Assembly: GCA_964016885.1 (NCBI GenBank)
Contig: OZ024740.1
Location: 203,980,001 to 204,044,000 of the forward strand
Direction: 5' to 3'
DNA length: 64,000 nt
Origin: Eledone cirrhosa
Lineage: Eukaryota
Part shown: in pieces, positions 22,225 through 33,865 of the stretch
Numbering within the stretch: position 1 is the first letter of the stretch
Layout of the letters: the number at the start of each line of letters is the position of its first letter
Program-made: the position numbers and the translations under genes
Notes under the pieces: generated by a model
The model's database searches: none
Seen by the model: only the letters and a program-made list of their open reading frames with translations
Told to the model about the DNA's origin: nothing

Positions 22225-22445
22225 TATTTATCTGGCTGCGTGGTTAAGGATTTCGCTTCGCAATCACGTGGTTTCGGGTTCTGGTCAAATGCAGTGGCAC
22301 ATTGATAAAGTGTTATCTACTATATCCTCGGTTTGGTCAGTATCTTGTAGATGAAATTTTGTAGACGGAAGCTGTACAAGAGCCTATCATATATGTATAT
22401 ACGCTAAGTTTCAAGGCATAAGCAAACAAAAACAGCTATAAAAAT
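22225..22445 (+). mobile_element. SINE-bearing segment; diverged inverted counterpart at 33505-33718
   Basis: gctgcgtggttaagg...gtttcgggttc head; similarity to the inverted copy extends from gtatttatctgg to the (TA)n. Confidence 0.7.
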
Positions 22446-23055
22446 ACATATATATATATATATATATATATATATATATATATATATATATATATATATA
22501 TATATATATATATATATATATATGAGAATAAACGTGCTGCGGAGTTGCAAACGGGTTACATATGAATACAGTGGTCCTTCATCAGTGATCTTCCAACCAT
22601 CATCGGTATTTCTTCGCTTTAAAGACCATATACCTCCGGCTGGTGCGAGCAACGGCTAAAGAAAGTCGTTGGGACATGTAAATGAAGGGAACGGCGAGAG
22701 TGTAAACAAACAAAGATGGTGAAGCAACGAAAAGTGAGGAAGAGCGAGTCAAGTCCAAAAATTTCTATGAATATAAGTTCGGTGAAATAGTGAACGAGAG
22801 AGAATAAAGACCATCAAACCTGGTTGAAGTGTGAGCAAGGAAGGAATTTCGCACAGGTCTAACGGGAGGAAGAAGGGGTCTAGTCTGTGAATTCGGTAAA
22901 CATAAGTTCTGTGAAATATATATACAGAGATATCCACGGTAAGTTGTGGGGTCTATTCTGCATGAAGAACTCAATGTAATCCATATGTTGAAATTGTTGT
23001 AGGTTAAGATAAATCCCGGAAAACAATAAAACATTAAAAGGAAAACAGAGTCATG

Positions 23056-25032
23056 ATATAAGTTAAAACAATGAAATAAAAAATCAAGTCATTAGAGATA
23101 TACTTCACTGCTTTACGATCGTTTCTAGGTGATGATAATACATTGTAGCTATACTTCGTTATTGATCTATGTAAGGTTAGTTACAAAATATCAGATAAAG
23201 AGAATATTTACTTACATGCATATCACTAGCTGTTTTCAAAAGCAATAATAATTTTATTCAGAATTAGTAGTATGTTAGTATCTTGCCTTTATTTGGAGGT
23301 AGTTGAAGAACTAACAAATGAAATTGTTTTTTTCATATGATGTTAAGATGAAAAGTAATTCACTTTAGTTGAGGTCATGACCCTTTGAAAGGAATGGTTG
23401 AATGGTGTTAATAATAGAATTGCCATAAAAAATCTATTAGGAAGAAAGGGATTGTCAAATTGTTAGTTGAATGTATCTGGTATAGTGAAGATTAAAAGGA
23501 ATGTAAAAATAAAATGATGATTAGTGTTGTATGGAGTTTTTAGGTGAATATAAATTATGGTCATGGCTAGGAAAGATAGTATATTAAAAGATGAAAATTA
23601 TAATAAGATAATGAAATACTGTAATGTAATAATATAATATAACTAACACAATATAGTACGGTGTGGTAAATTGCACTTAGTATAATACAGCGTATGATAG
23701 GCTCTAAAATACTATCAAGTGTTTATGTATAAATAATCAAACTCAGATAAATACATGTTGACATAGTCAAAACGCATAAATTACATAGATCACACTATAT
23801 ATAGAGAGGTATAGTTACATTGATACCCAACTAAAAATATACATACGCATAAATAGATGCAAACATAAATACACATTTACACATATGCGCATAATCATAT
23901 ACACATATATTTATACATATCTATATTTACACATACACACCTTTATCCACACACATATATATATATATGTATGCACACACTCATATATGTACACACATCC
24001 ATATATAAACACTCATACACATATACTCACATATTCACACACACAAACACACATATATAACCACACACACACACATCTATATATATATATATATATATAT
24101 ATATATATATATATATATATATATATATATATATATATATATATATATACATAAATATATTCCCATATCATACATAGATATATATTTACTCATGCAATTA
24201 CGGGTGGTTGTGTACCTTGTTGCCTTTAGTCATTAACGCATAAACCTAAGGAAGCTAAAACATTAAAAGGTAAAAGATAAGCATGAATACATATAATTAG
24301 GGGAAAGGGGTACTAACAAATGTTACTCTATATAGAATTATAGTGAGTTGCTATTTAGAATATTTAATTAGGTTTATAGTATTTAAATGTTCTTCGTATA
24401 CGGTGATTACAAACTATAATCGTCCTTAGATTTAGTAATTTCCAAGATCGCCCCTGAACATAACCTGCATTCCCTCCTGTTTCCAAGATATGGAGTTCTT
24501 TGTAGATTGGTGTTCCACGATAGTTTGAAATCTATTTTTTTCTTTTTATAATTATTTACTGCTTCAGCTAAAGATGTGGTGTTAGCTAGTTTAGTATTGT
24601 TAAAACTACAAGAGTGTGTGTAAAATCATTTCTTAAATGTGTTTGATGTAGATCCTATATATGTTTTGTTGGAGTCTGTAGTAGGCACAGTGCATTTATA
24701 TATTACATTATTAATCAAACAGTTGCTATTTAAGGGGCAAATGCTTCTATTTCTGCAATTACAGCCACACGTAAGATGGTTGTTGGGGGGGTGCCTATAC
24801 TATTCTCATTAATCCTTGAGCTATTCCTATTGTAATTAATGATAGCAGGAGAATGAAGGTTGCTTTGTGGGTGGTTTGGTGCTAGGGTTGTATTGTGATT
24901 TTGTGTTCTGTTGTATTTGTGTTGGTGATTTGGGTGGTTGTGTTTTCCAGGTTGAAGGATTGTATTATTTGTCTTTTTAAAAGGTGCAGTCCTATTTAAA
25001 TTATGTTGTGGTGGTGTAGTCATATTATCTTT
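23056..25032 (-). mobile_element. Decayed 5'-truncated Naiad-like PLE (GIY-YIG end plus long 3' region); left arm and spacer of a palindrome
   Basis: About 24770-24630 minus translates TCGCNCRNRSICPLNSNCLINNVIYKCTVPTTDSNKTYIGSTSNTFK, homologous to the C-terminus of the 27247 ORF. Confidence 0.85.
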
Positions 25033-25580
25033 ATAGGATCTACATCAAACACATTTAAGAAAAGATTTTACGGCCACTAGTAGTTTAAACAATACTAAAC
25101 TAGCTAACACCACATCTTTAGCTGAAGCAGTAAATAATTATAAAAAGACAAAAAATAGATTTCAAGCTATCGTGGAACACCATTCTACAAAGAACTCCAT
25201 ATCTTGGGAACAGGAGGGAATGCAGGTTATGTTCAGGGGAGATCTTGGAAATTACTAAATCTAAGGACGATTTATTAAATAAAAGACAGGAACTGATTAT
25301 AGTTTGTAATCACCGTATACGAAGAACATTTAAATACTATAAACCTAATTAAAAATTCTAAATAGCAACTCACTATAATTCTATATAGAGTAACATTTGT
25401 TAGTACCCCTTTCCCCTAATTATATGCATTCATGCTTATCTTTTACCTTTTAATGTTTTAGCTTCCTTAGGTTTATGCTTTAATGACTAAAGGCAACAAG
25501 GTACACAACCACCCGTAATTGCATGAGTAAATATATATCTATGTATGATATGGGAATATATTTATGTATATGTATATATA
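25033..25580 (+). mobile_element. Right arm, part 1, of the same Naiad-like palindrome
   Basis: Reverse complement of about 24140-24659. Confidence 0.9.
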
Positions 25581-31944: not shown

Positions 31945-31990
31945 TGCTCTGATGAGTCCCACTTATAGTGCGGATGAAACAATGTTAGCA
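31945..31990 (+). ncRNA. Type I hammerhead ribozyme in the 3' pLTR
   Basis: Identical to 26992-27037. Confidence 0.8.
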
Positions 31991-32131
31991 AGTAAAGATA
32001 TGCATATGCTATAGGCGTTCTTTGTTATTTATTATATCACGGCTCTTTCCTCAGACATTGAGCTAACCTTATACTGCCTGGTGGATAAGTGGAGTGTTAT
32101 ACACCCCTGATCCTCTCCCTAGTATACTATA

Positions 32132-33230
32132 TATATATATATATATATATATATATATATATATATATATATATATATATATATATGTGTGTGTGTGTGT
32201 GTGTGTGTGTGTGTGTGTGTATATATGTGTTTGTGTGTGTGTATATGTGAGTATATGTGTATGAGTGTTTATATATGGATGTGTGTACATATATGAGTGT
32301 GTGCATACATATATATATATATATATATATATATGTGGGTATAGGTGTGTATGTGTAAATATAGATATGTATAAATATATGTGTATATGATTATGCGCAT
32401 ATGTGTAAATGTGTATTTATGTTTGCATCTATTTATGCGTATGTATATTTTTAGTTGGGTATCAATGTAACTATACCTCTCTATATATAGTGTGATCTAT
32501 GAAATTTATGCGTTTTGACTATGTCAACATGTATTTATCTGAGTTTGATTATTTATACATAAACATACTTGATAGTATTTTAGAGCGTATCATACGCTGT
32601 ATTATACTAAGTGCAATTTACCACACCGTACTATATTGTGTTAGTTATATTATATTATTGCATTACTGTATTTCATTATCTTATTATAATTTTCATCTTT
32701 TAATATACTATATTTCCTAGCCATGACCATAATTTATATTCACCTAAAAACTCCATACAACACTAATCATCATTTTATTTTTACATTCCTTTTAAACTTC
32801 ACTATACCAGATACATTCAACTATCAATTTGACAATCCCTTTCTTCCTAATAGATTTTTATGCCAATTCTATTATTAACACCATTCAACCATTCCTTTCA
32901 AAGGGTCATGACCTCAACTAAAGTGAATTACTTTTCATCTTAACATCATATGAAAAAAACAATTTCATTTGTTAGTTCTTCAACTACCTCCAAATAAAGG
33001 CAAGATACTAACATACTACTAATTCTGAATAAAATTATTATTGCTTTTGAAAACAGCTGGTGATATGCATGTAAGTAAATATTCTCTTTATCTGATATTT
33101 TGTAACTAACCTTACATAGATCAATAACGAAGTATAGCTACAATGTATTATCATCACCTAGAAACGATCGTAAAGCAGTGAAGTATATCTCTAATGACTT
33201 GATTTTTTATTTCATTGTTTTAACTTATAT
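32132..33230 (+). mobile_element. Right arm, part 2, of the Naiad-like palindrome
   Basis: Reverse complement of about 23056-24150 with few substitutions. Confidence 0.9.
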
Positions 33231-33865
33231 ATATATATATATATATATGTGTGTGTGTGTGTGTGTGTGTGTGTGTGTGTGTGTGTGTGTGTGTGTGTGA
33301 GTATGTCTGTCTGCATGTATATTATATATATATATTTAATATATTATATATATATAATATATATGCATATTTACTGGGTAAAACATTACTTTGTTCTGTT
33401 TTATTTGTCATCATTTGCTGTCATATTTTTCTACCGCATTGTACCAGCTTTTGAAAATGATTGCTCTTTTATTATTTATATATATATATTATATATATAT
33501 ATATATATAGCCATTTTTGTTTGCCTTGAAACTTAGCGTATTTACATATATGATAGGCTCGTGTACAGCTTCCGTCTACCAAATCTCATCTCTAAGACAC
33601 TGACCAAACCGAGGTTATAGTAGATGACACTTTGTCAATGTGCCACTGCACTGGACCTGAACTCGAAACCACTTGATTGCGACGCAAAATCCTTAACCAC
33701 GCAACCAGATAAATACGTATTGGGAAAATTAAAAAGTAGTGGTGAAATGCCATTAACTGTTAGAACTTATCCATCGACAGATGGTCGGTCAAATCGTATA
33801 ATGAAGTAGTAATCAAACACATATAATCACAAAGACATATTTATATATGTAGATATAGATATGTA

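Follow-up and report, generated by a model that had tools for sequence, protein, structure and literature searches.

Two nested layers of putative Hydra-clade Penelope-like elements at (TA)n tracts in Eledone cirrhosa

How does an 11.5-kb stack of inverted and direct repeats come to be assembled among (TA)n microsatellites, and does such a stack multiply its own targets? The question is raised by a 64,000-nucleotide stretch of DNA from Eledone cirrhosa (assembly GCA_964016885.1, contig OZ024740.1, positions 203,980,001 to 204,044,000 of the forward strand). This whole stretch is hereafter called the window, and all coordinates are given in its own numbering. The original prediction read positions 22225-33718 as three nested layers built by insertion into (TA)n, namely an outer inverted pair, a Naiad-like head-to-head palindrome and an inner full-length Penelope-like element (PLE), which together would be self-amplifying. 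The analysis reported here points to a different history: two successive retrotranspositions of (TA)n-targeting PLEs of the Hydra clade probably took place at a site where two copies resembling short interspersed nuclear elements (SINEs), in opposite orientations, were present already.

Repeats were found by self-BLAST after dinucleotide runs had been masked, followed by pairwise alignment. Three were recovered within the structure. One is the outer inverted pair. The second is inverted as well and falls into two parts, which match 23061-23945 to 33225-32340 and 24154-24659 to 25562-25032. The third is direct (25747-27174/30762-32127) and forms the pseudo-long terminal repeats (pLTRs) of the inner element. 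Arm and pLTR alignments have bit scores of 785-2255, far beyond chance, and the coordinates first proposed were right to a few bases. In the left arm of the palindrome, (TA)36 runs without a break over 24078-24149. The right arm holds at this position, in succession, (TA)5, a 146-bp piece (25583-25728), (TA)9, the 6.4-kb PLE and (TA)29. The right arm is therefore split at (TA)n by a PLE and a piece of about 145 bp, just as had been noticed from the letters, while the tract is unbroken in the left arm. Two nested layers, inner within middle, are proven. A third layer of insertion is not, since the outer pair gives no evidence of being one insertion.

Divergence ranks in nesting order. The inner pLTRs (25747-27178/30762-32131) differ in 11 of 1367 columns (0.80%; confidence interval, CI, 0.40-1.44), and the middle arms (23057-24659 against 25033-25566 plus 32344-33229) in 22 of 1390 (1.58%; CI 0.99-2.39), a count that omits the microsatellite block 23941-24149. 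For the outer pair (22224-22443/33716-33506), pairwise alignment gave 20 mismatches in 211 columns (9.5%), and the middle and outer values differ clearly (Fisher p=4e-8). The later arrival of the inner element is nevertheless deduced from its interruption of a middle arm, not from divergence dates.

The inner layer, designated family A, is composed of the following parts.

25747-27178, + strand: upstream pLTR, a 5'-truncated partial tandem copy with a type I hammerhead motif at 26992-27037 (self-BLAST, descriptor)
27247-29736, + strand: intact open reading frame (ORF) of 829 aa (ORF list, motifs, fold)
29737-30761, + strand: non-duplicated part of the 3' untranslated region (UTR), with a TG/TA-rich block and (TA)7 at 30585-30598 (sequence)
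30762-32131, + strand: downstream pLTR with a hammerhead motif at 31945-31990; its 3' end is an element-encoded TATA running into the target tract
25729-25746, no strand: (TA)9, left remnant of the inner target (sequence)
32128-32185, no strand: (TA)29, right remnant of the inner target (sequence)

Published text defines the Hydra clade by a reverse transcriptase (RT) with a C-terminal GIY-YIG endonuclease (EN), the motifs RWK, DKT and CxCx5C, a CxxC and a CxH that lie around the catalytic E and N, and no CCHH (Craig et al., 2021; PMC8557442). By this motif definition, the inner insertion (25747-32131, 6385 nt; monomer 4953 nt from hammerhead to hammerhead) is predicted to be an intact Hydra-clade PLE with a telomerase-like RT followed at the C terminus by a GIY-YIG domain. 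The ORF carries RWR38 (the Hydra RWK motif with K replaced by R), DKT121, YRDD352, CxCx5C688 (CNCRRASGC), YIG722, CxxC786 (CNLC) and CxH814 (CPH), and its C-terminal EN has one Cys between GIY and YIG and no CCHH. Residues R733, H737, E792 and N805 are conserved in a 20-row alignment in which all Hydra motifs are kept. Matches to the ORF were found in 1212 of 8000 scored proteins, and Argonauta hians was the sole species-named match among 120 listed relatives. The AlphaFold model of the ORF has a predicted local distance difference test score (pLDDT) of 80.5. Foldseek placed telomerase RTs at all of ranks 1-8 (best E=5.7e-9), with whole-chain TM-scores of only 0.25-0.32, and a profile search of solved-structure sequences gave a single, meaningless match (E=0.24). 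A 78-bp in-frame tandem duplication (28741-28899) lies in a low-complexity, low-confidence linker of the ORF.

The strict descriptor for type I hammerheads matched twice in the 64 kb, once in each inner pLTR. These repeats are about 1.4 kb long and derive from a partial tandem. The element ends in TATA, which in the upstream copy leads on into the 5' UTR, and (TA)9 and (TA)29 adjoin the two ends. From stop codon to hammerhead there is a 2.2-kb spacer that holds the TG/TA block and (TA)7. An intact 829-aa ORF and pLTRs with a hammerhead in each bear out the claim of a full-length PLE at 25747-32131, and the copy appears young and intact, with both ribozyme motifs kept.

The middle layer, designated family B, and the sequences immediately joined to it are as follows.

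23057-25031, - strand: longer 5'-truncated copy, with RT-EN linker, CxCx5C, GIY-YIG EN and a 1.3-kb 3' region; 3' end at TATAT
about 24799-24364, - strand: EN of the longer copy, with an in-frame stop and a 26-nt deletion (six-frame translation, profile)
24078-24149, no strand: (TA)36 of the left arm, empty equivalent of the inner insertion site
25032-25582, + strand: proximal part of the shorter copy, with EN carrying frameshifts, stop at 25352 and 3' region to (TA)5; starts at the YIG codons, TATA junction
32186-33229, + strand: distal part of the shorter copy, 3' end at TATA, carrying a putative U3-A8 hammerhead
25583-25728, no strand: 146-bp piece with TA on both flanks (sequence)
23105-23248, - strand: putative hammerhead with U3-A8 core variant, left copy (relaxed descriptor)
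33038-33181, + strand: putative hammerhead with U3-A8 core, right copy (relaxed descriptor, fold)
33226-33247, no strand: (TA)11, remnant of the middle layer's target, then (TG)n (sequence)

Six-frame translation locates a GIY-YIG EN at the inner ends of both arms, and the palindrome's 'spacer' (24660-25031) represents the RT-EN linker that belongs to the longer copy, on the minus strand. The EN reads CNCRNRSIC (CxCx5C), YIG, CRLC and CNH, then a stop, with one Cys between GIY and YIG and no CCHH. Among 120 listed Hydra-type relatives, 118 matched the left arm (tblastn, best E=1.8e-21) and 114 the right arm, and the best matches to the left arm use C-terminal residues. The Hydra profile meets a middle arm only over positions 531-701 of 704 (E=1.6e-31), and the profile search detected no RT in the distal arm and none after the EN. 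Both copies are truncated downstream of the RT with its RWK and DKT motifs. The layer is assigned to the Hydra clade and not to Naiad because the EN is C-terminal with CxCx5C upstream, a stop follows it and no RT lies beyond. Hence the head-to-head geometry that had been described stands, and the 'Naiad-like' label does not. The middle layer would consist of two dead, 5'-truncated copies, joined head to head, from a second Hydra family: its EN is identical to the inner EN at 52 of 108 residues (48%), and masked self-BLAST detected no nucleotide similarity between the two layers.

A reading of the distal arm as a Naiad 3' end was set aside, as by eye it is unlike the printed ends of Naiad_Obim and Naiad_Ovul. 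A search for full-length relatives with a 57-aa piece of the middle EN returned one uninformative match of 213 aa, and five motifs from the window had no match in the supplement text of PMC8557442, where line breaks may hide matches. The (TA)36 of the left arm sits within about 320 nt of sequence alternating between purines and pyrimidines, and a 37-bp imperfect palindrome lies inside the distal arm (32573-32609 and 23678-23714). The 146-bp piece matched nothing in the window or in the 19 related loci described below, and its fold was no better than those of shuffled sequences (z about -0.5). Its identification as a tail, inverted filler or ribozyme of either element was rejected for want of a match or an unusual fold.

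No canonical hammerhead was found in the middle arms with the strict descriptor. A relaxed descriptor, composed after the motif had been noticed, picks out a candidate in each arm, 48 nt from the arm end, in which helix I has 9 bp, the core is U3-A8, the helix II region spans 107 nt and helix III is palindromic. Unconstrained folding gave helices I and II as drawn (z=-3.0, with 2 of 200 shuffles equally good), and ten block-shuffled windows contained no match with a helix I of at least 7 and a perfect core. The U3-A8 core is a reported variant of PLE hammerheads (PMC4209133), and the candidates share with the reported form the core covariation, a palindromic minimal helix III, an unpaired base 5' in helix II and a position near the PLE 3' end. 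However, helix II is described there as 7-8 bp, whereas the 107 nt here are predicted as one long interrupted hairpin, and the 9-bp helix I is also unlike the published variant (PMC4209133); the motif is a candidate only. Elsewhere in the window, a compact U3-A8 hammerhead-like motif (19173-19210, - strand) and one with a long helix II (19456-19600, - strand) flank a 170-bp TA tract (19268-19438). The PLE-like end at 19456-19515 resembles the middle 3' end (74% over 61 nt, E=0.013), and profile search found no Hydra protein match near it.

Relatives were drawn from 19 comparison loci (L001-L019), obtained in one scan of bacterial genome records for Hydra-type proteins; Hydra-type PLEs in contigs filed as bacterial are probably animal host DNA. 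By reading, head-to-head inverted copies occur in at least six of these loci (L001, L003, L008, L010, L013, L016). Three (L003, L008, L018) are multi-family pile-ups in which several Hydra 3' ends are stacked with TA spacers. Twenty-three copies were chosen whose profile match reaches the end of the EN. A hammerhead follows the EN by 78-199 nt in 20 of them, one of which (in L014) was found by a looser pattern only; two of the other three have less than 170 nt of sequence, and the last has a TA tract at 239 nt and no motif found. No tract of (TA)4 or longer precedes the hammerhead in any of the 20, and a TA tract is met 157-345 nt after the EN in 12 of the 23. Published lists give Hydra consensus lengths of 1.1-3.0 kb with short 3' UTRs and name (TA)n as the target in 26 of 27 families, and a short TATA can be seen by eye at the same place in several printed consensus ends (PMC8557442). 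Both window elements depart from this usual Hydra 3' anatomy, with 3' UTRs of 1.3-2.4 kb that contain TA tracts. No title or abstract opening in the literature covered, which left subscription journals and repeat databases outside its scope, dealt with long TA-bearing Hydra UTRs or with such nesting.

Around the two PLE layers lie the outer pair and single-copy flanks.

22224-22443, + strand: outer-left SINE-like copy, ending at a TA tract (profile, alignment)
22449-22522, no strand: (TA)37 after the outer-left copy (sequence)
22523-23056, no strand: flank X, single-copy, outside the palindrome, with no second copy in the window
33248-33505, no strand: flank with TG/TA microsatellites and about 110 bp of sequence Y (window repeat searches)
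33506-33716, - strand: outer-right SINE-like copy, 90.5% identical to the left (profile, alignment)

A profile of the outer pair found three further copies in the window at E<=4e-6 and two weak matches. The head of the repeat may be A/B-box-like, judged by eye against the consensus. ARAGORN found no tRNA genes in the window and Rfam reported none. A GAAAC..GTA half-motif on the reverse strand of the pair has no matching first half and was taken as chance. A second SINE-like family has at least 12 copies in the window at E<1e-9, among them 20449-20639, 38303-38528, 39605-39788, 56543-56770 and 59249-59438, and five aligned copies are 76-88% identical. OR2 is a named octopus SINE (PMC4758252). 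A diverged inverted pair is present as predicted, but its standing as an insertion layer is not upheld: no clear target-site duplication (TSD) was found, the copies lie at unequal distances from the middle arms (about 610 bp and about 280 bp), and they belong to a dispersed SINE-like family. Nothing shows that the pair was built by insertion into (TA)n. Flank X was also considered as a third Hydra remnant or a continuation of the left arm, on a weak tblastn match (2 of 120 queries, best E=0.008). This was rejected, as a hidden Markov model (HMM) search gave no support and its reading frames are by eye unlike a Hydra N-terminus.

The proposed history begins with family B RNA, which may have been reverse transcribed at a nicked (TA)n beside flank X. 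Twin synthesis of both arms in one event would yield two 5'-truncated copies joined head to head, with 5' ends inward at 25031/25032 and 3' ends outward at TATA; the long 3' region of each would include a TA/TG microsatellite. Autonomous family A would then have entered the (TA)n of the right copy as about 1.3 monomers, giving the order pLTR-ORF-pLTR, and the 146-bp piece would have come into the same tract separately, as we infer, or as captured filler. In each event, the GIY-YIG domain would nick (TA)n, and the free end would pair with the element's TATA just past the hammerhead and prime reverse transcription; a short TATA lies downstream of the hammerhead at the 3' ends of both families. 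Nicking by GIY-YIG and target-primed reverse transcription are established for PLEs, and head-to-head 5'-truncated inverted copies are described for them, including the Hydra family Penelope-13_HM (PMC8557442). Hammerhead cleavage with possible circular templates has been proposed (PMC4209133), and a hammerhead-cut, possibly circular RNA could give rise to a more-than-unit copy. Such targeting would reuse and split tracts, so that pile-ups grow.

Several observations weigh against this reading. Nine of the 19 comparison loci share one record set and are hence not independent, Pfam reported no family in the inner ORF and detected GIY-YIG in just 3 of 20 aligned members, and the difference between inner and middle divergence is not significant (Fisher p=0.079). 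Element boundaries of both families are read from one locus only. Furthermore, the arm has its TA tract some 230-250 nt past the EN, at the place where the target is met in relatives, and may be a composite. In that case, 3' transduction would have joined a short Hydra 3' end lacking its hammerhead, an old (TA)n, about 0.9 kb of flank and the hammerhead end of a neighbouring PLE. We hold this to be possible although somewhat doubtful; the carried tract would be a relic target site, which alters the origin of the tract and not the nesting. The spacing of the hammerhead and of the first TA tract in relatives favours it. That the middle (TA)36 sits at the normal target spacing is the chief finding against a native UTR, and it raises the standing of a read-through composite. 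The distal hammerhead is also unlike all Hydra motifs in File S2 (C3-G8 core, loops of up to 9 nt) and resembles the separate PLE-like end at 19456-19515, and PLE transduction of host DNA is on record (PMC6431247). Against transduction, the interval from the EN stop to the TA tract yielded no remnant of a hammerhead. In addition, long UTRs are something that these Hydra families do show: the inner element, with a hammerhead linked to its own 5' UTR, likewise has a TA tract in a spacer of 2.2 kb.

In another reading, a single resident copy became the middle palindrome through a DNA-level event at a TATA/(TA)n hairpin, either fold-back or template switching. This would suit the head-to-head junction on self-complementary TATA (25032-25035) and the other short inverted pairs near TA tracts in the window. 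It is improbable, given that both arms end at the same base, 48 nt past the putative hammerhead, with no flank duplicated, and that this end is the one expected of a PLE in an arrangement common among relatives. Palindromes, tandem repeats and long TA tracts assemble poorly (noted for PLEs in PMC8557442), yet a fold-back chimera or collapsed repeats are very hard to credit here. Arms and pLTRs differ by scattered substitutions and by one-sided indels, including the 26-nt deletion in one arm, which makes an assembly fold-back unlikely; the window contains no N, and its junctions fall on biologically expected motifs. For the outer pair the balance is nearly even. It may be a real unit, either a local inverted duplication of an old SINE or the terminal inverted repeats (TIRs) of a non-autonomous DNA element whose interior (X, the TA/TG tracts and Y) was later hit by PLEs. 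Its members show 89.6% core identity against 47-67% to three other aligned copies of the family, and they have in common a 9-nt head that departs from the consensus and a distinct tail of 40 nt. Before the PLEs inserted, no more than about 0.9 kb would have separated them, and a TA dinucleotide stands on both sides, set off from the repeat by one mismatched base. However, the homology runs from about 10 nt before the A-box-like motif to the TA tail, as in two full-length SINEs; RNA polymerase III transcripts are expected to start about 10 nt before the A box. The lack of a clear TSD also counts against a unit, and the second SINE-like family reaches 88% identity without pairing. Two full-length copies of one SINE subfamily are thus favoured by a narrow margin over a local duplication or TIR pair.

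Two successive Hydra insertions leave the question of self-amplification. Both arms carry a TA tract at the same place, so the tract was part of the duplicated unit, and the data support an insertion of the inner PLE into (TA)n inside that unit. To this extent, the claim of self-amplification survives: the copied unit carried a TA tract, and the number of tracts rose. Its remainder is undercut, as the invader is of another family, the case is a single one and TA is common anyway. Within the structure there are 13 tracts of (TA)5 or longer, 7 of them inside the middle and inner PLE layers; outside it, the window has 49. Among random 2.1-kb placements outside the structure, 31% include a (TA)20 or longer and 14% a (TA)30 or longer. 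TA tracts being dense outside the structure too, the element-borne tract is one of numerous targets. Nor does a carried tract have to be present for elements to pile up at split TA tracts, as L003, L008, L018 and the SaTar arrays of plants show. The model of one self-amplifying system in three nested layers, with a Naiad middle that re-targets its own microsatellite, can point to the tract in both arms, the (TA)7 of the inner 3' UTR, the share of tracts inside the PLE layers and the agreement of divergence with nesting. It remains improbable, since the features of the middle EN contradict the Naiad definition, the inner and middle elements are different families, and the outer pair is a dispersed repeat without a clear TSD in a background of high TA density. 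A broader conjecture, which we think rather unlikely, is that Hydra PLEs of this TA-saturated genome gained kilobase-long 3' UTRs by reading through an old (TA)n to the next ribozyme, in this case the non-canonical U3-A8 hammerhead with its 107-nt helix II. Each copy, two per palindrome, would then export a fresh, long TA tract for use by other TA-targeting families, with positive cross-family feedback on microsatellite load, nested towers and an exchangeable ribozyme 3' module as the outcome.

The window as a whole has a GC content of 39%, contains no N and is rich in microsatellites and retroelements. A Neptune-type PLE forms another head-to-head palindrome at 4777-9413, with (TA)25 on one side and a long TA tract on the other; its arms are 2.7% apart (52 of 1938 mismatches), and a CxxC linker and CCHH were seen by eye. 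A short inverted 3'-end piece at 16805-17121 is related to it. A second, more distant Neptune-type family is present in fragments at 61418-62500, split by (TA)11 at 62127, and it includes a hammerhead-like motif whose helix II region measures 62 nt (62197-62289). Further hammerhead-like motifs lie at 36259-36338 (+ strand), with a (TA)15 tract 85 nt downstream as expected of a PLE 3' end, and at 59558-59607 (- strand). Decayed non-LTR retrotransposon copies with apurinic/apyrimidinic (AP) endonuclease and RT occupy 11102-14569, 38895-39603 and 40550-49695 (Pfam RVT_1, E=2.7e-26, in the copy at 40550-42916), and we take them to be Tx1/L1-like. Other short inverted pairs, 81-98% identical and some beside TA tracts, are found at 70-442, 9639-10118, 10750-12467 and 59905-60930. 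An Rfam scan of 22000-34000 at E<=5 gave 38 matches, none of which reached the gathering score or belonged to a hammerhead family; they are mostly microRNA models on TA/TG repeats and were dismissed as chance.

Most of this locus is an ordinary transposon pile-up. Its ingredients (TA targeting, partial tandems, head-to-head inverted copies and pile-ups) have all been published or are seen again elsewhere in the window and among relatives. What is unusual, and appears to extend Hydra anatomy, is the combination of long TA-bearing 3' UTRs with a putative U3-A8 hammerhead that has a 107-nt helix II. The left arm serves as a built-in empty-site control, which allows target use by a Hydra PLE to be followed at the level of single bases, and the element-encoded TATA at the 3' ends of both families hints at annealing between target and RNA. 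An in vitro system has been named as a next task for this group of elements (PMC8557442), and the inner copy, apparently young and intact with both ribozyme motifs, is a usable candidate for such an assay. If the long TA-bearing UTRs and the long-helix hammerhead hold genome-wide, the spread of PLEs would be linked to microsatellite abundance.

Among known systems, the Hydra clade (Craig et al., 2021; PMC8557442), with Hydra-1_Obim and Penelope-13_HM, is closest in its single ORF and motif set, type I hammerhead near the 3' end, (TA)n target and 5'-truncated inverted copy at the 5' end. The likeness of the inner ORF to Hydra-1_Obim was judged by eye only, and the inner hammerhead differs by eye from the listed Hydra-1_Obim motif, which indicates another family. 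Hydra elements are described as generally below 3 kb, a size exceeded by the inner monomer (4.95 kb) and insertion (6385 nt). Unlike listed Hydra members, the inner element has 2.2 kb from stop to hammerhead and pLTRs of 1.4 kb, and in the middle one a spacer of about 1.1 kb includes (TA)36. The Naiad clade shares (TA)n targeting, inverted and tandem insertions and, in octopus Naiads, an AT-rich 3' UTR of about 1 kb (PMC8557442). Naiads, however, are described with an N-terminal EN bearing CX2-5CxxC and a CCHH motif that places two Cys inside GIY-YIG; CxC, DKA and RT come after this EN. In the middle arms, by contrast, the EN is C-terminal and of Hydra type, and no RT lies beyond it. The plant SaTar/TAFTA arrays (PMC5907723) are similar in that unrelated elements pile up at (TA)n and tracts persist or expand on both sides. 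Those arrays are stated to be non-nested and consist of non-autonomous Mutator-like DNA elements, while here one retroelement is nested in another because of a tract inside the host element. The EN-minus PLEs Athena, Coprina and Terminons, which lack an endonuclease and attach to telomere ends, carry reverse-complement telomeric repeats by the hammerhead (PMC8557442; PMC6431247). A target-matching stretch near the ribozyme is common to both, in the form here of a short TATA at both 3' junctions. Unlike in the EN-minus PLEs, long TA tracts lie here upstream of the hammerhead, where one of them served as a target.

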